Source: a virus
Taxonomy: Duplodnaviria > Heunggongvirae > Uroviricota > Caudoviricetes
IMG/VR virus record: IMGVR_UViG_2703718769_000010
Coordinates: 1-6,574 of that record
Strand: one strand, 5' to 3'
Length of the DNA: 6,574 bases
Shown one piece after another: positions 1 through 6,574 of the stretch (the first letter of the stretch is position 1; each line of letters begins with the position of its first letter). Position numbers and translations under genes: made by a program. Under the pieces are notes generated by a model. It ran no database searches. It was not told the origin of the DNA and saw only the letters and a program-made list of their open reading frames with translations.

Positions 1-675
1 CCGGTCAGTAACCGAACCCTGATGAGTCTGCTGGCGTCAGGCGAAGACCTGGCATCACAGGGCTGGCGCTATTATCACAAACCGGCGAGCGGAGACAGTA
101 TTGATAAAAACATCGCTGAGGCTGTGGTCAGTGATGAGGGTGCCACCGGTGGTAAGGCCCTGCAACTGAACAAACAGGAAAGCCACATCTGGTTTCTGGA
201 GCATGATGCAGCCGGGCAGGGGGCAGAGTTGCTGAAGAAAGGCGGACGTGTGAGTGTGCGGTTTAAGGTGCCGGGCTCACTGGTACAGAATCGGTTTGCC
301 CTGGGTATTTACTGGCAGTTGTCGTCCCTGCCGGAGGGGGTGTCGCTGGCAGAGGAAGGCAACGACATGCTGATGTCCTTCTTCCTGCAGACGGATGCGA
401 CGAACCTGAACGCGATGTACCACAAGACGCAGAATGTGAAGCTGGATACGTTCGGGGCATTTGATAACGAATGGCACACACTGTCTTTTGAGTTTGCCGG
501 AAACAACAGCATTCAGGTGACGCCGGTACTTGATGAGAAGCGGGGCACGCCATTCACGCTGGTGAAATCTCAGGCAACAGGGGTGGCGGATAAACTTCTG
601 CTGACTGATATCACGAAGGTGGCAACGTATACGCTGCTGATTGACAGCGTGAAGGTGGAAGTGAATAACCCGTAA
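1..675 (+). CDS. 3' end of a large late-region protein, truncated by the window edge; C-terminal beta-rich lectin/jelly-roll-like domain, possibly the C-terminal domain of a prophage NanS-p-type esterase
   Basis: Frame 1 is open from nt 1 (codons ccg gtc agt aac cga acc ctg precede the first ATG at 22); stop TAA 673-675. Sits immediately upstream of the lysis cassette, the slot for large cargo ORFs in lambdoid prophages. Family guess is from remembered synteny, not a search. Confidence 0.6.
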   Translation, partial: PVSNRTLMSLLASGEDLASQGWRYYHKPASGDSIDKNIAEAVVSDEGATGGKALQLNKQESHIWFLEHDAAGQGAELLKKGGRVSVRFKVPGSLVQNRFALGIYWQLSSLPEGVSLAEEGNDMLMSFFLQTDATNLNAMYHKTQNVKLDTFGAFDNEWHTLSFEFAGNNSIQVTPVLDEKRGTPFTLVKSQATGVADKLLLTDITKVATYTLLIDSVKVEVNNP

Positions 676-814
676 GCAGGAAAAAAAAGACCGCCGGTGC
701 AGGGAAAACAAGGAGCCAGAACCGGCGGCAGAGGTCGCTACATCCTTAGCAAACAAAAAATGCAGGACTGTTTTAACTAACGGGCATTAACCATGTCAAT
801 AATGGAGATGAATA

Positions 815-994
815 ATGACATTTTTACAGCTGATTATGTTGTATTTCTGCACGGTGGTGTGCACGTTATATCTGGTCAGTGGCGGGTATAAGGTTATCCG
901 GAACTATATACGCAAAAAGACTGATGCCGCGGCGGCGGAAAAAATCAGCACCGGTCAGTCAGCCGGAACCAGACCCGAAGAGCCGCTCATTTAG
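815..994 (+). CDS. Small hydrophobic protein, 59 aa (MTFLQLIMLYFCTVVCTLYLVSGGYKVIRNYIRKKTDAAAAEKISTGQSAGTRPEEPLI); one predicted TM helix then a basic patch
   Basis: Not in the ORF track (under 60 aa). ATG 815 is preceded by GGAGA at 804-808 with 6-nt spacing; stop TAG 992-994. It overlaps, in another frame, the GTG-initiated 5' extension of track ORF 879..1319, which I consider non-coding. Confidence 0.35.
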   Translation: MTFLQLIMLYFCTVVCTLYLVSGGYKVIRNYIRKKTDAAAAEKISTGQSAGTRPEEPLI

Positions 995-1034
995 TTGCAA
1001 TCTTCTTTACAACACCTTTCAACGAGAAAATTCC

Positions 1035-1319
1035 ATGTCAGAAATAAACCCCCTGGTCACTGCTGAGGCAGTGAAAGACGCGCTGCGCTCAGAAGATGTG
1101 CGTGGAGCACTGAAACAGAAAGTCCGCCAGACATTTGAAGCGCAGATAGAAGCGGAGGTGGATGCGATTCTGGATACGCTACTGGGCGAGCAGCCAGGCG
1201 AACAGCCAGAGCCGGAACCGCAACCGGAAGATATCACCTCAGAAAACGGCGATATTCAGCCGGAATCACCGGTGGTTGATGCGACTGAAGCACAACCCGA
1301 ACCGGGCACAATGCTGTAA
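1035..1319 (+). CDS. Small acidic hypothetical protein, 94 aa, with Pro/Glu/Gln-rich low-complexity C-terminal half
   Basis: First ATG of track ORF 879..1319 (the track start is a GTG); E. coli-like codons; weak SD (GAG at 1024-1026). Function unknown. Confidence 0.5.
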
Positions 1320-1330
1320 AGGTGAGTCAG

Positions 1331-1360
1331 GGCCATCAGTAAAGTACTGCTGGCCTTTTT
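1331..1360 (+). terminator. Intrinsic terminator-like hairpin upstream of the holin gene
   Basis: GGCCATCAG (1331-1339) pairs with CTGCTGGCC (1347-1355), one mismatch, 7-nt loop, followed by TTTTT (1356-1360). Confidence 0.5.
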
Positions 1361-1395
1361 CATGTTGTGAGCTTCCGGATTGCGGGAGACGGGGT

Positions 1396-1611
1396 ATGTA
1401 CCAGATGGAAAAAATCACAACAGGTGTGTCATACACCACGTCAGCGGTGGGGACGGGCTACTGGTTCCTGCAGCTGCTGGACAGGGTTTCCCCGTCTCAG
1501 TGGGCGGCAATAGGCGTGCTGGGGAGTCTGCTGTTTGGTCTGCTGACGTACCTGACGAACCTGTATTTCAAAATCAGAGAGGACCGTCGTAAGGCGGCAC
1601 GGGGAGAGTAG
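1396..1611 (+). CDS. S: Class II holin (pinholin, phage 21 S21-like), 71 aa, dual-start motif M1-Y-Q-M4
   Basis: [71 protein letters not shown] closely matches the S21 pinholin as I remember it (shared C-terminus [20 protein letters not shown]); two TM segments; GGGAG at 1384-1388, 7 nt before ATG 1396; second in-frame ATG at 1405. The track ORF start at 1162 is an artefactual upstream extension. Confidence 0.9.
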
Positions 1612-1614
1612 GTG

Positions 1615-2256
1615 ATGAACCATGAAGAAATGAATCAGCGCTTCAGTCGTCTGGAAAATGAAATTGCTGAACTGAATAAAAAACTGTCGGCGCTGATGCC
1701 TTCTGAAGATGCAAAAAAACGCCGCGATGAGCAGTTTGCGGCGTTTTACGATGATTGCATCAAAATTGCTCGCAGGACCTTTGCGAATATTTTGCAGGAA
1801 AAGTTTTTAGCGACCGCATTGTCAGAAAAGTACTCCATTACGGTTAAAAGTGCCGGAGAGGAAGGCAATAAACGTTATTTTATTGCGTCTGCACCGGATA
1901 AAGACCAGGAATGGGAGTGTAATCGGCCATCTTTTATTGTGAGCAGCGATGACTGGAATATCACGATCCGTGAAGATGGGAAAGTAACACCGGCATCGCA
2001 CCAGCACAGTGAGGCGCTCACTGAATTTGCCATTGATTACCTGAAGAACAATAAAAAGCAGGGGCTGATGCAGCGCATTGGTCGTTGCATGGGATATCTG
2101 CAGGTAGCTGCTGAGATTGAAGCGCTGGCCAGTGGTGCTGATAAGGATGCAGTTGTGCGGGAGACCGTTCTTCGTGATTTCAATACGCCACCCTTTAAGA
2201 AAGAGCCTGATGGCTGGATCCAGCCGGGGCTGACTTATCTCAAATGGTGCATATAG
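1615..2256 (+). CDS. Hypothetical protein X, 213 aa, N-terminal coiled-coil-like segment, no TM segment or signal peptide; unknown function
   Basis: ATG 1615 lies 3 nt after the holin stop (TAG 1609-1611), with GGGGAGAG at 1601-1608 as its RBS, suggesting translational coupling to S. Stop TAG 2254-2256. No family recognised. Confidence 0.75.
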   Translation: MNHEEMNQRFSRLENEIAELNKKLSALMPSEDAKKRRDEQFAAFYDDCIKIARRTFANILQEKFLATALSEKYSITVKSAGEEGNKRYFIASAPDKDQEWECNRPSFIVSSDDWNITIREDGKVTPASHQHSEALTEFAIDYLKNNKKQGLMQRIGRCMGYLQVAAEIEALASGADKDAVVRETVLRDFNTPPFKKEPDGWIQPGLTYLKWCI

Positions 2257-2283
2257 TAAAAGAGAAAACAATTGAGGTGAAAA

Positions 2284-2511
2284 ATGAAAAAATACGATAT
2301 GACAGTTAAATCATTCCACATGGGGGATAAAAATGTTGTCGTTGTCCTTGGTATATATAATTATCAGATTCCATCAATGCTGTTGTTCAATATTGAAATA
2401 GATATTGAACGACGGGAAGATGCTACCATTCCGTTTTATGAGGCGCTGGCTTTAAAAAAAGCAGTCTCGCTAATCCATGAAATTTCTGATGATTTAGCAG
2501 TGGCTGCTTAG
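2284..2511 (+). CDS. Hypothetical small protein Y, 75 aa; unknown function
   Basis: Strong SD GAGGT (2274-2278) 5 nt before ATG 2284; 27 nt downstream of X on the same strand, so probably co-transcribed; AT-rich relative to the flanking phage genes. Confidence 0.7.
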   Translation: MKKYDMTVKSFHMGDKNVVVVLGIYNYQIPSMLLFNIEIDIERREDATIPFYEALALKKAVSLIHEISDDLAVAA

Positions 2512-2515
2512 ATTT

Positions 2516-2803
2516 TTATTTCAAAAATGGCTCAGGACTGGTATTGCCAAACATGGGTCTTACCGGTGGTTGCATGAGGGTATTGATGGCGACTTTAATC
2601 TCTGGTTTACCTGAGGTTGTGATTTTGCTCAGTTCGCTATGTAACCTGGTTTTAAGCTCATCACTGAATTTCTTGTCTCCACTTTGCTGATCCAGAATGT
2701 CAACGATGTTGTAGAACAGGAAATTGGCTGCGGTATTTATAGCTATGTTTTCGCGCTGAAGCCCCTGAATTAGTTGAAAAAGTTCATGGTTTGATATTTC
2801 CAT
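2516..2803 (-). CDS. Hypothetical protein Z, 95 aa from the ATG at 2803 (MEISNHELFQLIQGLQ...); convergent with X-Y; unknown function
   Basis: Track ORF 2516..2866 starts at a GTG with no RBS. The internal ATG (+ 2801-2803) has AAGGAG 6 nt upstream on the minus strand; the ATG at 2833 has its SD abutting the start codon. Stop TAA (+ 2516-2518) is 4 nt from the Y stop. Confidence 0.6.
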   Translation of the reverse strand: MEISNHELFQLIQGLQRENIAINTAANFLFYNIVDILDQQSGDKKFSDELKTRLHSELSKITTSGKPEIKVAINTLMQPPVRPMFGNTSPEPFLK

Positions 2804-2927
2804 TAAGTTCTCCTTATTGAGGTTATCAGCCATCCCTCTTTTGTTACATGTGCCAGTGCCCACCACTGGCAGGCTGAAGACTTAACATATCCAGGGATTC
2901 GGAACCGATAAATCCTGATAAATATCC

Positions 2928-3461
2928 ATGAACACCAAAATCAAATACGGCCTGTCGGCTGCCGTTCTGGCGCTGATTGCCGCAGGTGCGCCTGCGCCTG
3001 AAATCCTCGACCAGTTTCTGGATGAAAAAGAAGGCAACCACACCACGGCATACCGTGATGGTGCGGGTATCTGGACCATCTGTCGCGGTGCCATTCTGGT
3101 GGATAGTAAACCTGTCGTCCCGGGCATGAAGTTGTCGAAGGAGAAATGCGACCAGGTTAACGCCATTGAACGTGATAAGGCGCTGGCATGGGTGGAGAAA
3201 AACATCAAAGTGCCACTGACGGAACCCCAGAAAGCGGGGATCGCGTCATTCTGTCCGTATAACATTGGTCCCGGTAAGTGCTTCCCGTCGACGTTTTACA
3301 GACGAATTAATGCTGGTGATCGCAGGGGAGCATGTGAGGCGATTCGCTGGTGGATTAAGGACGGTGGCAGGGACTGCCGTATTCGCTCAAATAACTGTTA
3401 CGGTCAGGTATCCCGGAGAGACCAGGAGAGCGCGCTGGCGTGCTGGGGAATCGACAGATAA
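2928..3461 (+). CDS. R: SAR-type endolysin (phage lysozyme, GH24/T4-lysozyme fold), 177 aa
   Basis: Gly/Ala-rich N-terminal signal-anchor-release segment (YGLSAAVLALIAAGAPAP) followed by the canonical catalytic spacing E-x8-D-x5-T in EGNHTTAYRDGAGIWT. SAR endolysins pair with pinholins, consistent with the S gene upstream. Confidence 0.92.
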   Translation: MNTKIKYGLSAAVLALIAAGAPAPEILDQFLDEKEGNHTTAYRDGAGIWTICRGAILVDSKPVVPGMKLSKEKCDQVNAIERDKALAWVEKNIKVPLTEPQKAGIASFCPYNIGPGKCFPSTFYRRINAGDRRGACEAIRWWIKDGGRDCRIRSNNCYGQVSRRDQESALACWGIDR

Positions 3462-3550
3462 GCAGAATATTTTGCTGATAAATGGCGTTGGCCAACGCGG
3501 GCGGATAACACGAAATCCTGCGAACTGGCAAAATGTAAGTGAGTAAAAGT

Positions 3551-3593
3551 AAAAACCCCGTTTGTTGGCAGCAAGCGGGGTTTTGTGTTTTCT
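3551..3593. terminator. Bidirectional intrinsic terminator between R and Rz
   Basis: A5 (3551-3555), 9-bp stem CCCCGTTTG (3556-3564) with CAAGCGGGG (3572-3580) including one G-U pair, 7-nt loop, then TTTTGTGTTTT (3581-3591). Confidence 0.6.
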
Positions 3594-3682
3594 GACCTTG
3601 AGTAAGGCAAGGGAGAAATTATGGGTAGGGAGGTGCTTTCCCTGTGAGGAAGTATAAAAGATTCTTTCTGAGGTTGTCCATT

Positions 3683-3796
3683 ATGAAAGGCATTGAAGTG
3701 GAGACGCCAGCCAGTCTGGATTTAACAAGAGCGGCAGCTTTTGCCATTCGTATTGTGGCCATTGCTGTTCTGGTCTGGGCAATCCGTTGGTGGTGA
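3683..3796 (+). CDS. Small membrane protein candidate, 37 aa ([37 protein letters not shown])
   Basis: Not in the ORF track. ATG 3683 with GAGG at 3670-3673; stop TGA 3794-3796 sits 1 nt before the Rz ATG at 3798; single C-terminal hydrophobic helix. Confidence 0.35.
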
Positions 3797-3797
3797 T

Positions 3798-4265
3798 ATG
3801 AACCGTGTTCTGTGTGTGGTGATTATTGTCCTGCTGGTAGCCTGTGGTGTGCTTAGTCTGGGGCTGAATCATTACCGCGATAACGCCATCACCTACAAAG
3901 CGCAGCGCGATAAAAAAGTCAGTGAGCTGAAACTGGCGAATGCCACTATTACTGATATGCAGCAGCGCCAGGGTGATGTTGCTGCGCTTGATGCCAGATA
4001 CTCGAGGGAATTAGCCGATGCGAGAGCTGAAAATGAAACTCTGCGTGCTGATGTTGCCGCTGGTCGTAAGCGCCTGCGGATCAACGCCACCTGCTCCGGT
4101 ACCGTGCGTGAAGCCCCCACCACCTCCGGCGTGGATAATGCAACCGGCCCCCGACTGGCAGACACCGCTGAATGGGATTATTTCATCCTCAGAGAACGGT
4201 TGATGACAATGCAGAAGCAGCTGGAAGGGGCGCAGGAATATATCCGCACTCAGTGCCTGAAATAA
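3798..4265 (+). CDS. Rz: Rz i-spanin (inner-membrane spanin subunit), 155 aa
   Basis: [40 protein letters not shown]...[18 protein letters not shown] aligns along its whole length with lambda Rz as I recall it; N-terminal TM segment then coiled-coil periplasmic domain. The track ORF start at 3741 is an upstream extension. Confidence 0.9.
4018..4203 (+). CDS. Rz1: Rz1 o-spanin (outer-membrane lipoprotein), 61 aa, embedded in the +1 frame of Rz
   Basis: [61 protein letters not shown]: lipobox VVSAC, proline-rich mature region, close match to lambda Rz1; lies entirely inside Rz in another frame; GAGGG at 4004-4008 upstream. Confidence 0.85.
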
Positions 4266-4465
4266 GTTTTGCTGATGCGCCGTATCGTCGCCGTATTCCC
4301 GCATTAACAGAGACCGCAGCCCGACAGGGAGACTCCTCTGCGAGAGTGTGTGGGGATAATCAAAAACGATACACACCGGGGTTTACCGCGTTAACGGAGC
4401 GCGGCGTTGTCCCCTCATAGTCGCCAGTCCGGTGCGATGGTGGAAGAAACTGGAGTTTAGACAAT

Positions 4466-4499
4466 AAAAAAAACCTGCCGGGTTGTAGCAACGGCAGGT
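4466..4499 (-). terminator. Intrinsic terminator for leftward (minus-strand) transcription
   Basis: On the minus strand: stem CCTGCCG / CGGCAGG (+ 4474-4480 / 4492-4498), 11-nt loop, followed by T8 (+ strand A8 at 4466-4473). No T-run on the + strand side, so it is unidirectional. Confidence 0.6.
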
Positions 4500-4535
4500 G
4501 ATGGCACATGCAGAAGAGAATAGTATTGTTGTTAT
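4466..4535 (-). ncRNA. Candidate ~70-nt small RNA (minus strand) ending at the 4466-4499 terminator
   Basis: Putative sigma70 promoter on the minus strand: -35 TTGAAA (+ 4564-4569), 16-nt spacer, -10 GATAAT (+ 4542-4547). No credible ORF between promoter and terminator. Purely a sequence-based prediction. Confidence 0.3.
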
Positions 4536-4541
4536 TTTTTT

Positions 4542-4569
4542 ATTATCATTTTTTCAGAGTTGTTTTCAA
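4542..4569 (-). promoter_or_regulatory. Putative sigma70 promoter (TTGAAA-16-GATAAT) for the candidate small RNA
   Basis: Hexamer matches read directly from the sequence; the -35 lies inside a 16-bp motif repeated at 5201-5216. Confidence 0.3.
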
Positions 4570-5104
4570 CTCGAAATAATCGAGCCTGAATTATAATACT
4601 TACTATGCGTTATTTACTTATATTATGCTCCATGTTGCGGGACTGGGCGGTTTCCATCAGACAGTTGAGATGAATGACGAAAAGAATATTTCTTATTGTT
4701 AAGCTTTTCTGAATAATGTTTGGAGCGTATAAAATTGCCTTTGTGGCTCCTTGTGTGTGGGGGCAGGTTTTTATAGGGTGTTGTTTACTCTTATATAACA
4801 CACTGCTTTAAGTATGTTCAGCCTTCATAGGATTATTTATGCAAGTCTGGCGTTTTAATTTTATAATGTTTGCCGCCTGAACATGATTGTGAATTTCTCC
4901 TTATTTTACTGAGTGAATCTTTAAGCGAAAAATGGGTGCAACTGCTCTCGAGAGCTTTTGTCAGTGTAGCGGCCGTATTTTTTGCTGATAACGATGCAGA
5001 AGCCACCGGATGAGATTCAGATATACCTGGAAAAAGCCTGAATTGAAAAGAAACAGGTGTAATGTGCAGCACGGCTGGGGAATAAAAAATATGTGAGCAT
5101 AATC

Positions 5105-5134
5105 AAAAAAAACTGCTGTGTTGGCGCACAGCAG
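5105..5134 (-). terminator. Intrinsic terminator for leftward transcription
   Basis: On the minus strand: perfect 8-bp stem CTGCTGTG / CACAGCAG (+ 5113-5120 / 5127-5134), 6-nt loop, followed by T8 (+ strand A8 at 5105-5112). Confidence 0.65.
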
Positions 5135-5177
5135 TAAAGATTGGATAAGGGTAGAAGATTATTATTATTATTCTTTT

Positions 5178-5216
5178 GTTTTATTTTATGTGACGGATTA
5201 TTTCAATTCGGAATAA
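5178..5216 (-). promoter_or_regulatory. Second copy of the conserved motif with a weaker promoter-like arrangement (TTGAAA-17-TAAAAC), paralogous to 4542-4579
   Basis: TTTCAATTCGGAATAA (5201-5216) versus TTTCAACTCGAAATAA (4564-4579), 14/16 identical, same orientation, each about 65-70 bp from a minus-strand terminator. The -10 here lacks the conserved final T. Confidence 0.2.
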
Positions 5217-5343
5217 CTGTAGGTAATAACTTTAAGTTATCGTAAAGCCTGCAATGTTAAGGATTAGTTATATAAAGGGGCAGAGAAACGGTCCGACCCT
5301 CTGGCCTCATTCTTTAAACTTGTTATGCGATTAGCATGTTTTC

Positions 5344-5378
5344 TTGTCAGTTGTCAGTTGTCAGTTGTCAGTTGTCAG
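5344..5378. repeat. Perfect tandem heptanucleotide repeat (TTGTCAG)x5
   Basis: Five uninterrupted copies at 5344-5350, 5351-5357, 5358-5364, 5365-5371 and 5372-5378; overlaps the 3' end and stop codon of the minus-strand RHH ORF. Confidence 0.95.
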
Positions 5379-5522
5379 TCTCCGGCGACAGGCTTCAATA
5401 ACCCACGCTGAAAAGTTACCGGACCCTTTATGCTCAAGGGCGCTGTTGATCTGTTCAATCATGTGATTGGGGAAACGGATATTGCGGGTTGTTGTTCTGC
5501 GGGTTCTGTTCTTTGATGACAT
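5361..5522 (-). CDS. Small ribbon-helix-helix (CopG/Arc/omega-like) DNA-binding protein, 53 aa (MSSKNRTRRTTTRNIRFPNHMIEQINSALEHKGSGNFSAWVIEACRRRLTTDN)
   Basis: Not in the ORF track. Hand translation of the minus strand: ATG at + 5520-5522, stop TGA at + 5361-5363. Pattern of beta strand (RNIRFP), helix A (NHMIEQINSALEH), G-x-S/N loop and helix B (FSAWVIEACRRRL) is typical of RHH proteins. Weak SD (GGGG). Confidence 0.55.
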   Translation of the reverse strand: MSSKNRTRRTTTRNIRFPNHMIEQINSALEHKGSGNFSAWVIEACRRRLTTDN

Positions 5523-5710
5523 AATGTTGCCCCATATTCAGTGTTGCTGATTTGTATTATCTGAAGTTGCTTTTACGTTAATTTGATGCAGATCAATTAA
5601 TACGATACCTGCGTCATAATTGATTATTTGACGTGGTTTGATGGCGTACACGCACGTTGTGACATGTAGATGATAATTATTATTTTGTGGGTCCTTTCCG
5701 GCGATCCGAC

Positions 5711-5740
5711 AGGTTACGGGGCGGCGACCTCGCGCGTTTT
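5711..5740 (+). other. cos: Lambda-type cos site; cosN 12-nt cohesive-end sequence GGGCGGCGACCT at 5719-5730
   Basis: GCGATCCGACAGGTTACG-GGGCGGCGACCT-CGCGCGTTTTCGCTATTTATGA matches the lambda genome-end junction as I remember it (lambda begins GGGCGGCGACCTCGCGGGTTTTCGCTATTTATGAAAATTTT). The match fades about 35 nt into the cosB side. Confidence 0.85.
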
Positions 5741-5946
5741 CGCTATTTATGAGATTTTTTGAGGGGGTGGTTGTTGTTTAATTGTTTGGTATATCTAATT
5801 GATAAGTAAGGTGAAAATAAAATAAATACAACAACCTCACGATGTATTTTGATGTCATTAATGTGAAAAAATTCAATGATATCAAATGGTTTTGTAAAAA
5901 CACATGGTTGTTGTATCGCTTTTTATCGATGACTTATGGAGAGGAG

Positions 5947-6453
5947 ATGGCCTTTTTATTGAATAAAAGTGATATGGCCTCCTCCATCGGTATCTCTGTT
6001 CAGGCATTTGATAAATGGGGCGTTCCTCCTGTTGAGCGTCGGGGGAGGGAAGTTTTTTATGACGTTAAAACTGTACTGGAGATAGATCGCGAGCGGCGAC
6101 AACACAATCAGAGAACACCTGATGACGGGGGCGATCTGGAGGAAAGGCTGCTTCGGGCCAGAGCTGAACTGACAGAAGAACAGGTCGTAGCTCAAAAACT
6201 TAAAAATCAGGTAACCGAAGGTAAGCTCATCGATTCAGACTTCTGCGTTTTCGCCCTCAGCAAGCTGGCGATGGCATTGTCCAGTACGCTTGATTCTATT
6301 CCGTTATCCATGCAGCGACAGTTCCCGGATTTAACGCCACGTCATATTGACCATCTGAAAACCCTTATTGCGAAGGGCGCAAATCAGTGTGCGCGGGCAG
6401 AGGATAAATTACCGGATTTGCTGGATGAATATATCAGAGCAACAACTGAATAA
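5947..6453 (+). CDS. nu1: Terminase small subunit (lambda Nu1-like), 168 aa from the ATG at 5947
   Basis: C-terminal two-thirds aligns with lambda Nu1 (FCVFALSKLAMALSSTLDSIPLSMQRQFPDLTPRHIDHLK vs FCTFVLSRIAGEIASILDGLPLSVQRRFPELENRHVDFLK); GGAGAGGAG directly upstream of ATG 5947. Track start 5842 and the ATG at 5929 lack an RBS and would fall in cosB. Confidence 0.88.
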   Translation: MAFLLNKSDMASSIGISVQAFDKWGVPPVERRGREVFYDVKTVLEIDRERRQHNQRTPDDGGDLEERLLRARAELTEEQVVAQKLKNQVTEGKLIDSDFCVFALSKLAMALSSTLDSIPLSMQRQFPDLTPRHIDHLKTLIAKGANQCARAEDKLPDLLDEYIRATTE

Positions 6454-6574
6454 TCTGATGGTTGCCGTTTCGGTTGCGCTGCAGCCTCTGGTCAGGGGTG
6501 TACCGATGACGGCAGTTGAATGGGCTGACCAGTATTATTATCTGCCGAAAGAATCCTCATACGGGGACGGAGAA
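6425..6574 (+). CDS. A: Terminase large subunit (lambda gpA-like), N-terminal 50 codons, truncated by the window end
   Basis: MNISEQQLNNLMVAVSVALQPLVRGVPMTAVEWADQYYYLPKESSYGDGE aligns with the lambda gpA N-terminus (MNISNSQVNRLRHF...PQTAVEWADRYYYLPKESAYQ); overlaps the end of nu1 by 29 nt, as in lambda. Not in the ORF track. Confidence 0.85.
   Translation, partial: MNISEQQLNNLMVAVSVALQPLVRGVPMTAVEWADQYYYLPKESSYGDGE

Follow-up and report, generated by a model that had tools for sequence, protein, structure and literature searches.

A probable mosaic of a YdfR-family gene and a moron/reverse-moron cassette between the holin and lysozyme genes of a tailed phage

What fills the space between the holin gene S and the lysozyme gene R of this phage, and does it have one history or several? 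The window (the whole stretch of 6,574 nucleotides analysed, positions 1 to 6,574 of IMG/VR record IMGVR_UViG_2703718769_000010) has an S-R distance of 1316 nt, and the initial annotation had read the DNA in between as a single module of three unrecognised cargo ORFs, here called X, Y and Z. The presence of extra cargo and the coordinates of all three ORFs hold, and the coordinates also agree with the described arrangement, in which X is coupled to the holin stop, Y follows 27 nt downstream and Z is convergent (Table 1). The term 'three-gene module', in turn, is probably only partly right because the insert appears to have two histories: we regard it, with a probability of about 70%, as a mosaic of X and an independent Y-Z moron/reverse-moron cassette. 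The first unit, X, would derive from a YdfR-family gene of the kind usually present directly 3' of S21-type holins in Stx-type and Qin prophages. The second, spanning approximately 2270-2925, would comprise Y, Z and the promoter and structured leader of Z, and would be of the HK97 gp22/gp23 or ES18 gp24/gp25 type.

Layout of the S-R insert and relatives of the Y-Z pair

Table 1. Genes and regulatory features at the S-R junction of the window.
Feature	Position	Strand	Description
S	1396-1611	+	Phage-21-type class II holin; PF04971, E 9e-33; left boundary
X	1615-2256	+	213 aa; ATG 1615, alternative GTG 1612
Y	2284-2511	+	75 aa; starts 27 nt 3' of X
Z	2516-2803	-	95 aa from ATG 2803; convergent with Y
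Predicted 5' leader of Z mRNA, structured	2804-2878	-	Folding and covariation
Promoter-like block for Z, conserved	2879-2925	-	Adjoins the R start codon
R	2928-3461	+	SAR-type phage lysozyme; PF00959, E 2.5e-24; PGAP 'lysozyme'; right boundary

In a 99.9% identical genome of E. coli ST866, PGAP calls S a 'class II holin family protein' and also annotates X, Y and Z. Pairwise dN/dS lay in the ranges 0.16-0.42 (X), 0.17-0.59 (Y) and 0.05-0.19 (Z), saturation of synonymous sites being frequent, and all three are real genes under purifying selection. The start of X comes directly after the holin stop codon (TAG 1609-1611), Y is preceded by the Shine-Dalgarno sequence GAGGTG at 2274-2279, and the stop codons of Y and Z are 4 nt apart. 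The late-sense orientation of X and Y and the start-coupling of X to the S stop agree with the earlier suggestion of joint synthesis with the lysis genes, and both would be translated from the Q-dependent late transcript. In the S holin, M1 and M4 may both serve as starts.

Moron/reverse-moron pairs were reportedly first seen in HK97 and HK022, by Juhala et al. in 2000. Morons are characterised by a promoter and a terminator of their own, a deviant GC content and expression from the repressed prophage (PMC3594210). The base composition of Y-Z is deviant: GC is 0.34-0.42 over 2251-2850 vs 0.52-0.57 in the flanks, in agreement with the AT-richness ascribed earlier to Y and Z, and the corresponding values for the HK97 cassette are 0.45 vs 0.51-0.56. 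The extra DNA is also absent from the same junction in relatives, 12E129, phage 86, PhiR12_1 and BP-4795 having no Y-Z between S and R. No conserved terminator was found between Y and Z or after Z, and a terminator-like hairpin at 2496-2508 was discarded, as it is not kept in homologues.

The cassette type is already known from HK97 and HK022, and the S-R insert is a further instance of it. The HK97 'moron product' gp22 and 'reverse moron product' gp23, and gp22 and gp23 ('srb') of HK022, have the same convergent geometry as Y-Z (NC_002167, NC_002166). Both phages share the module upstream of Z—a promoter-like region, a UCAGCC...GCCAGUGGUGGG(A)CACUGGC hairpin, GGCUGAU and a Shine-Dalgarno sequence—which is 68-74% identical to window 2801-2925, with GC below that of the flanks in both. 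Their gp23 cargo proteins, however, are unrelated to Z, and the late-sense partner is no member of Pfam DUF1327, the profile match of the HK97 gp22 family being weak (hhalign probability 41%). Whereas the HK97 and HK022 cassettes stand at the I-J tail junction, that of the window stands at the S-R lysis junction; the late-strand terminator hairpin which tail-operon copies carry upstream of the promoter is missing from the window because R starts there.

Salmonella phage ES18 encodes homologues of both Y (gp24, a DUF1327 protein, 49%) and Z (gp25, 'possible moron; function unknown', 55%), and shares with the window the convergent geometry, the 4-nt gap and the upstream module. ES18 has no X; its pair lies at the M-L tail junction, and the annotated gp24 has an 11-residue N-terminal extension. 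The presence of the same pair there and in other contexts bears out the earlier idea that Y and Z were acquired horizontally. Overall, Y-Z without X recurs at no fewer than five other late-operon positions. ES18-like phages have the pair between gpM and gpL; other copies follow the tape measure gene or Rz, or adjoin a GT2 gene and HNH/terminase genes. The 4-nt stop-to-stop spacing is fixed across six contexts, and in all contexts found Y runs in the sense of the flanking genes and Z against them.

Promoter-like block and leader upstream of Z

ES18, E. albertii, HK97 and HK022 keep the 125 nt upstream of Z at 68-74% identity, and window 2852-2927 is common to other S-R gap variants and is present in 347 E. 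coli genomes. The promoter-like block contains a -10-like TATGTT (2889-2884), a -35-like TTTATC (2912-2907) and an imperfect inverted repeat with arms ATCAGG (2919-2914) and CCCTGG (2896-2891). In line with the claim that Z needs its own promoter, this regulatory region of Z is conserved; the candidate hexamers match at only 7 of 12 positions, and a consensus promoter scan did not call them. Sigma-54, sigma-28 and ops/JUMPstart readings of the block were inspected by eye, and none fits. Z would be transcribed leftward from this putative promoter, with a predicted start near 2877, so it could be expressed from the repressed prophage and would face converging late transcription once the prophage is induced. 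The expectation of prophage expression is based on characterised morons known to be expressed from prophages, namely HK97 gp15, Bor and Lom of lambda, and the Cor proteins of HK022, N15 and phi80 (PMC3594210), whose small accessory genes likewise sit in late operons and carry expression signals of their own. These are membrane or surface proteins with demonstrated exclusion or virulence roles, unlike Z, which is predicted to be cytoplasmic and helical (see below).

The predicted leader consists of P1 (UCAGCC 2877-2872 with GGCUGA 2831-2826), P2 (a hairpin of 2871-2864 with 2858-2851) and P3 (GAGG 2838-2835 with CCUC 2822-2819), the last being weak with only 4 bp in the window. Its minimum free energy is -26.3 kcal/mol (z -2.2). 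According to RNAalifold and pair counts, 97.8% of cells are paired when the Z-sense strand is read and 91.2% for its complement, and 3 pairs are compensatory. Among 43 distinct leaders, P3 was 83.7% paired and 6 pairs were changed on both sides; P1 was 98.4% and P2 98.5% paired, values that are partly circular because the search pattern fixed the 5' arms of these two helices. In all copies the leader is followed by a conserved Shine-Dalgarno sequence and start codon. The leader matches no Rfam family, and its sequence was not found printed in the literature searched. At a related locus an isrK match reached only 22 bits, far short of the gathering score of 50; it covers the promoter and terminator on the opposite strand and was treated as a terminator-plus-hairpin resemblance. 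With its first helix beginning at the predicted 5' end, the leader may control the stability or the translation of the mRNA.

The Z frame itself can be opened at GTG 2866 (116 aa), ATG 2833 (105 aa) or ATG 2803 (95 aa). ATG 2803 is the start common to all Z homologues and has a Shine-Dalgarno sequence AAGGAG at 2815-2810. The extension from ATG 2833 (MADNLNKENL...) was rejected as a conserved ORF: it spans 3 codons in ES18 and 9 in E. albertii, the L017 copy is out of frame, and the conservation around ATG 2833 is at the nucleotide level, in the 3' arm of P1.

A search of IMG/VR with an exact 20-nt leader pattern gave 121 instances, behind which the cargo ORFs fell into 19 BLAST clusters, that is, at least 19 unrelated small-ORF families. 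Both neighbours were on the strand opposite to the cargo in 73 of the 79 instances in which both neighbouring ORFs were callable, and a convergent late-sense partner ORF was present in 84 of 104. The regulatory module is thus conserved before many unrelated cargo ORFs that lie antisense to their neighbours. This unannotated promoter and leader provides a handle for finding reverse-moron cargos and the timing of their expression; should these cargos turn out to act in exclusion, defence or host modulation, the leader would also serve as a genomic marker for a pool of uncharacterised accessory genes carried by prophages of pathogenic E. coli and Salmonella.

The same pattern raises the question of whether the functional product is the RNA, with an antisense transcript silencing leaky expression of the holin, X, Y or other late genes in lysogens and the ORFs being passengers. 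No cargo is as conserved as the promoter and the 5' half of the leader which precede it, the cassette is nearly always antisense to late genes, and BP-4795 keeps promoter and leader without a convergent ORF, so that its transcript would run antisense into ydfR and S. We nevertheless consider this unlikely, since Z is under strong protein-level constraint (dN/dS 0.05-0.19, synonymous sites saturated), and the Shine-Dalgarno sequence and start codon persist behind the leader in every copy. An RNA role and a role of the Z protein are not mutually exclusive.

The Y and Z proteins and their possible roles

Contrary to the description of all three ORFs as unrecognised, X matches phrog_1085 (see below) and Y is a stand-alone DUF1327 domain: it matches PF07041 with E 2.1e-8 and 34.7 bits (cut-off 25), residues 2-71 aligning to profile positions 3-72, and phrog_2735 with E 4e-24. 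Identity of Y is 49-60% with its homologues in ES18 (gp24) and E. albertii, 24-33% with the DUF1327 domain of long YdfR-family proteins and approximately 23% with K-12 YdfR; judged from these identities, it belongs to a DUF1327 subfamily other than that of the long proteins. The holin-endolysin gene half-remembered in the initial annotation is ydfR of the Qin prophage, and Y is in the same Pfam family. In the literature searched, the name DUF1327 came up in a single paper, on a subject other than function. Residues 1-72 of YdfR, however, bind residues 1-597 of RNase E in a two-hybrid assay, YdfR co-purifies with RNase E 1-598, and it also co-purifies RNA (PMC13232886), which gives a concrete hypothesis for the DUF1327 half of the pair. 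Speculatively, Y might, late in infection, contact RNA or the catalytic half of RNase E in the manner of K-12 YdfR, an extrapolation from the one protein for which such binding has been shown and to which Y has low identity. Dip of phiKZ (PMC4980113), Srd of T4 and gp0.7 of T7 are phage modulators of RNase E and offer a 'works like' lead for Y only; they have no sequence or fold relation to it, and Dip binds the C-terminal scaffold of RNase E (PMC4980113). The sole Rfam match in the window at E <= 1 was a weak SNORD47 over the Y start (2267-2337).

Z matches phrog_10490 (E 1e-49) and comes from a small family: sets of 5.8 billion and 1.84 billion sequences yielded 6 clusters and 7 representatives, respectively. 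Its AF2 model (pLDDT 74) is all-helical, with helices at 5-40, 46-64 and 67-76, and the protein is predicted to be cytoplasmic. A Foldseek search with the model gave nothing in the PDB or BFVD, and PDB profile searches with X, Y and Z gave nothing below E 0.07. The C-terminus of the family is conserved as ...INxLMQPPV+xxF...PF(L/I)K, whose final residues resemble the FtsZ C-terminal peptide; mimicry of the FtsZ tail was set aside, as the spacing does not match. The convergent ORFs of the window, of PhiR12_1 and of phage 86/12E129 fall into three different PHROGs: Z has no detectable relation to that of PhiR12_1 (hhalign probability 0.3%) and is only 15-20% identical to that of phage 86/12E129 as compared by alignment alone.

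A toxin-antitoxin or known defence function, which had been left among the options, found no backing in these searches. X, Y and Z contain no toxin or antitoxin domain in Pfam or NCBIfam and match no toxin or antitoxin family in PADLOC; PADLOC-DB 2.0 gave nothing for X or Y and no family-wide match for Z. The lone match, of Z to the candidate defence model PDC-S51 (E 1.6e-5, 21.9 bits), was rejected because it occurs in 1 of 16 Z-family members, the Z of the window only, and it is probably due to coiled-coil or compositional similarity.

Despite this, Y and Z might be a cognate antagonist pair, either a defence or abortive-infection effector with its self-immunity or a toxin-antitoxin-like system, in which Z is present in the lysogen and neutralises, or is neutralised by, Y when the late operon fires. 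A Z homologue adjoins a DUF1327 gene in 18 of the 19 loci found with the Z profile, all 5 Z-type cassettes of the leader-pattern set have a DUF1327 neighbour, and the two genes keep both their opposite orientations and their constant spacing; the hypervariability of the cargo families is of the kind seen in arms-race genes. Still, classical toxin-antitoxin organisation is a poor match for two convergent genes whose expression probably falls in different states, the domain searches point to neither toxin nor defence, and one Serratia prophage has Z without Y, between gpI and gpJ. Partner and cargo families, moreover, assort semi-independently across leader-bearing cassettes, so that a specific functional tie between Y and Z rests only on their constant co-occurrence. 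Altogether, an antagonist pair seems improbable. For a Z carried in a moron/reverse-moron cassette, we would rather suggest, as speculation, that it is an accessory factor of the prophage state which works by protein-protein contacts, perhaps in exclusion or host modulation.

These elements can be joined into a broader and doubtful reading. The ~190-nt module would be an undescribed cis-regulatory element, with an inverted-repeat promoter and with P1 pairing into the P3 loop as a pseudoknot or two-state switch, common to a large reverse-moron family of enterobacterial temperate phages whose hypervariable cargos are swapped by recombination at the conserved ends; Z in the prophage and Y in the late phase might then have opposed effects on RNase E-dependent RNA decay or on incoming phages.

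X and the S-R gap as a recombination slot

X corresponds to the C-terminal two-thirds of long YdfR-family proteins and does not contain the N-terminal DUF1327. Its match to phrog_1085 (E 7e-99) covers profile positions 117-295 of 296, the N-terminus of that profile being DUF1327, and over 69-97% of its length X is 58-81% identical to PF07041-bearing 'YdfR family proteins' of 259-333 aa. X keeps the coiled-coil and the conserved C-terminal domain of the family; it has no match to PF07041 nor any in Pfam, NCBIfam, PADLOC or the PDB, and its AF2 model (pLDDT 46.6) was too poor for use. K-12 Qin YdfR (P76160), BP-4795 ORF47 and phage 86 gp05 occupy the same site as X, immediately after an S21-type holin, where PhiR12_1 likewise has a YdfR-family gene. 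YdfR proteins share PF07041 with Y and, in their long forms, the C-terminal region with X. Unlike those long proteins, the window thus carries the two YdfR-type parts in separate genes of different subfamilies. Y was considered as the missing N-terminal domain of X and rejected: it is of a different subfamily and accompanies Z, and there are prophages with X but no Y.

X is also found without Y-Z in 12E129-type and O157 prophages, where S and X are followed by a different convergent ORF; homology of the window to these prophages breaks sharply at 2255, the end of X, and at 2852, in the middle of the leader hairpin. Together with the tail-operon, post-Rz and terminase-proximal copies of Y-Z that have no X, this makes it very unlikely that X, Y and Z are one functional cargo module inserted as a unit, for instance to regulate lysis or as toxin-like cargo that lysis sets free. 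It is true that 16 E. coli genomes have the trio in this order, as do E. albertii prophages at 76% nucleotide identity, and that the YdfR family is the source of both X and Y. But in these E. albertii prophages X is truncated to 166 aa whereas Y and Z are intact, which bears on the decay in relatives that the initial annotation had named as counter-evidence. Nor do the proteins contain a known lysis or toxin domain or, as stated earlier, a TM segment (maximum 19-residue Kyte-Doolittle means 0.76-1.38), and Y-Z occurs in tail operons as well. The further objection anticipated there, that the genes might be widespread and of known function, applies in its first half, since the X and DUF1327 families are widespread but without known function.

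The complementary domain content of X and Y and the shortened X of E. albertii could also suggest decaying, rearranged fragments of one former long YdfR gene with no present function, which is hardly probable given that Y is of the other subfamily and travels with Z, that DUF1327-less forms of X are diverse (60-99% identity among them) and intact on hundreds of contigs, and that dN/dS is below 0.6 for both genes.

The S-R gap of Stx-type prophages is a recombination slot with a resident YdfR-family gene and an exchangeable HK97-type cassette. Interrupted S-R adjacency had been taken as unusual, but an occupied gap is ordinary in these prophages. Of 5426 complete E. coli genomes, BP-4795-type ydfR DNA is present in 2923—so that YdfR-family DNA occurs in over half—and X-like DNA in 1037, while the whole S-X-Y-Z-R order, and with it the Y-Z cassette, was found in 16.

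Composition of the holin–endolysin gap

The window belongs to an E. coli prophage of lambdoid, Stx-phage-like type and covers its late region; across the S–R region it is 99.9% identical to E. coli ST866/ST865. The PGAP annotation of ST866 gives the order SASA/NanS-type esterase, DUF1378, DUF826 and class II holin on the left, a hypothetical protein, a DUF1327 (PF07041) protein and a convergent hypothetical protein in the S–R gap, and lysozyme, Rz, a YlcI/YnfO-like protein and terminase on the right. Besides the holin (S) and the lysozyme (R), Pfam confirmed Rz and Nu1 in the window. The insert of about 1.3 kb with three ORFs described in the initial annotation was borne out: a gap of 1316 nt lies between S and R and contains X, Y and Z. 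The AT-richness of Y and Z was likewise verified (GC 0.34–0.42 vs 0.52–0.57 in the flanks), and hydropathy analysis agreed that X, Y and Z have no TM-grade hydrophobic stretch. Y and Z are convergent, with stop codons four bases apart. Longer readings of Z (105 or 116 aa) were rejected, being without conservation among homologues. All three genes are subject to purifying selection, with dN/dS of 0.16–0.42 for X, 0.17–0.59 for Y and 0.05–0.19 for Z.

Features of the S–R region and of the predicted Z leader
Feature	Position	Strand	Details
S, S21-type holin	1396-1611	+	Pfam
X	1615-2256	+	213 aa; start three bases past holin stop
Y	2284-2511	+	75 aa; 27 nt 3' of X; own GAGGTG Shine-Dalgarno
Z	start ATG 2803	-	95 aa; AAGGAG at 2815-2810; start fixed by homologues
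Leader block GAGGGAUGGCUGAU		-	after P2, before Shine-Dalgarno
P2 hairpin (predicted)	2871-2851	-	
P1 outer helix (predicted)	2877-2872 with 2831-2826	-	UCAGCC with GGCUGA
Promoter-like block of Z		-	in order: ATCAGG; -35-like TTTATC 2912-2907; CCCTGG; -10-like TATGTT 2889-2884
R, lysozyme	2928-3461	+	Pfam

The initial annotation contrasted the separation of S and R with lambda and phage 21, where the endolysin gene directly follows the holin gene. The usual tenants of this gap are YdfR-family genes, as in the Qin prophage (essQ-ydfR-rrrQ) and, in the same place, BP-4795 ORF47, phage 86 gp05 and PhiR12_1, so an occupied gap is ordinary in this phage group; BP-4795-type ydfR DNA is present in 2923 of 5426 complete E. 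coli genomes. Y matches DUF1327 in Pfam above the threshold. On the phrog_1085 profile, X covers positions 117–295 and Y positions 3–72, which is explained by the layout of the long "YdfR family proteins" (259–333 aa), in whose alignments DUF1327 is followed by a coiled coil and a conserved C-terminal domain. Judged by these alignments, X is a long YdfR-family protein minus its DUF1327 domain. Such DUF1327-less forms occur on hundreds of contigs with 60–99% identity among themselves, and X-like DNA was found in 1037 of the 5426 genomes. E. albertii has intact Y and Z but a shortened X of 166 aa.

The Y-Z DNA, in comparison, occurs in just 16 of the 5426 genomes, and the Z family is small: 5.8 billion sequences yielded 6 clusters, and a full HMMER scan of 1.84 billion gave 7 representatives. 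Among phages, the family is represented by ES18 gp25 and relatives. In ES18-like phages the Z homologue converges on gp24, which contains DUF1327 and shares 49% identity with Y, with the same 4-nt gap; this pair, annotated as "possible moron", is placed between the tail genes M and L, unlike the S–R site of the window. The cassette is mobile: it was found between S-X and R in E. coli as well as E. albertii (76% nucleotide identity), at M|L in ES18-like phages, 3' of a lambda-type tape measure gene, between Rz and the small terminase gene, and adjoining GT2 and HNH/terminase genes, whereas a Serratia prophage has Z without Y at gpI|gpJ. A DUF1327 neighbour is present at 18 of 19 Z loci, Y always lying along the neighbouring genes and Z always opposed to them. 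Synteny comparison showed the S–R gap to be variously occupied: 12E129-type prophages carry S-X plus a convergent ORF different from Z, and their homology to the window ends at 2255 and restarts at 2852; Y-Z therefore replaced another cargo behind shared sequence. Thus, of the proposed three-gene module, the extra S–R cargo stands, but X and Y-Z differ in history and distribution, and the interpretation is supported only in part. The insert is mosaic: X represents a common gene family resident at this junction, Y-Z a rare member of a cassette type already known.

A conserved leader ahead of unrelated cargos

The 125 nt 5' of Z are more conserved than the coding sequence. The hexamers of the promoter-like block are weak (7/12 matching), and the promoter scan made no call there; the predicted leader begins near the expected transcription start. 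Of the pair cells in nine cassette copies, 97.8% were standard on the Z-sense strand vs 91.2% on the opposite strand, lower because of U·G pairs, and three compensatory pairs were present in the helices. Rfam has no family for the leader, the sole related match being a 22-bit isrK on the opposite strand; it is annotated in none of the matching RefSeq E. coli genomes, and its sequence was not found printed in the literature searched, which excluded Juhala et al. (2000).

Searching IMG/VR for an exact 20-nt leader pattern returned at least 121 instances. Among the matches listed, a small ORF followed the GGCUGAU...CCUC...AAGGA leader in 114 of 121; these cargos comprise at least 55 distinct proteins in at least 19 BLAST clusters, only 5 instances being Z-like, and the cluster representatives recognised by Pfam were limited to a DUF1883 protein and a retropepsin-like protease. 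Also among the matches listed, the cassette was antisense to both neighbours in 73 of the 79 cases where both were callable, the next late gene started a median of 89 nt 5' of the leader, and a late-sense convergent partner ORF was present in 84 of 104 cassettes. Across 43 distinct leaders, pairing reached 98.4% in P1 and 98.5% in P2, the 5' arms of both being fixed by the search pattern, and 83.7% in a third predicted helix, P3 (CAGAGG/CCUCUG), with covarying pairs. The P1 3' arm lies inside the P3 loop, so that either a pseudoknot or alternative folding is implied. Families of partner and cargo are reassorted between cassettes, although Z always comes with DUF1327; one common partner family matches the DUF1327 profile weakly (hhalign probability 41%). 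What merits follow-up here is the unannotated leader and its changing set of cargos.

HK97 and HK022 also carry the module, between tail genes I and J, at 68–74% identity to the 125-nt region of the window. GenBank labels gp22 "moron product", HK97 gp23 "reverse moron product" and HK022 gp23 "srb". As the module is common to these pairs, Y-Z belongs to the moron/reverse-moron kind as defined by Juhala et al. (2000), in the summary of PMC3594210, here at the S–R junction.

Several further features of the module were observed. In many cassettes, among them those at L035 4290-4550 and L006 4293-4553, the partner ORF opens with a shared segment of ~11 residues (MTLEQRVEALE...) and varies thereafter; tail-operon Y homologues are extended N-terminally by this segment. 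Recombination may have its other conserved cassette end there. One contig (L112, IMG/VR) has leader copies at 2305-2324 and 4357-4376, 2 kb apart, and therefore two cassettes in one late region. In tail-operon copies (L037-L156, IMG/VR), AAAAAAGCC(G/A)C...G(C/T)GGCT lies ~40–110 nt 5' of the leader; on the late strand it reads as a GC hairpin then a U-run, terminator-like, just ahead of the next late gene. This element, annotated as a putative terminator in ES18 and HK97, is absent from the S–R copy of the window. Moreover, the 3' arm of P1 includes AUGGCUGAU (2833-2825, minus strand). In the window, L033 and P0132 this sequence shares the reading frame of Z (MAD(N/Y)L...), but other loci have it out of frame or as an upstream ORF of 3 or 9 codons. 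It may be either a coupled uORF or an RNA element alone.

Expression and function of the products

By moron precedent and geometry, Z would be transcribed in the prophage state from its own putative promoter and opposed by late transcription, with X and Y produced late. Profile and structure searches, proposed earlier for X, Y and Z, assigned no function: X had no match in Pfam, NCBIfam, PADLOC or PDB and its structure model was unusable, and Z, predicted to be all-helical, had no fold match. A PADLOC hit of Z was discounted, the rest of its family being without a match. The sole experimental lead comes from K-12 YdfR, whose residues 1–72 (DUF1327) bind the RNase E catalytic half in two-hybrid and co-purification assays and with which RNA co-purifies (PMC13232886). 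Y is a bare DUF1327 domain, yet ~23% identical to YdfR; a contact of Y with RNase E is speculative, as is a role of Z in exclusion or host modulation. The most conserved parts of the Z family are an INxLMQPP motif and the C-terminus PF(L/I)(K/E)-COOH (2516-2560, minus strand; Phe invariant), which looks like a docking peptide.

Other late-region features

The Nu1-type small terminase ORF (5842-6453, 203 aa, PF07471) is intact in the window; in the annotation of the near-identical ST866 record its place is taken by a hypothetical protein and an incomplete pseudogene. The stretch 4490-5360, flanked by Rz/Rz1 and the YlcI/YnfO-like gene, is AT-rich (GC 0.34–0.40). ST866, 99.9% identical, has no gene annotated there, and beyond 4301-4485 there were no close matches among 50,697 phage records; the stretch has the look of a further rare and unexplained insertion. 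The gap from R to Rz holds a small ORF (3644-3796, plus strand; 37 aa in the PGAP annotation, 50 aa if read from GTG 3644), whose product has a hydrophobic stretch at its end. In BP-4795 this gap is occupied by ant and ORF50, and it is apparently another variable slot.
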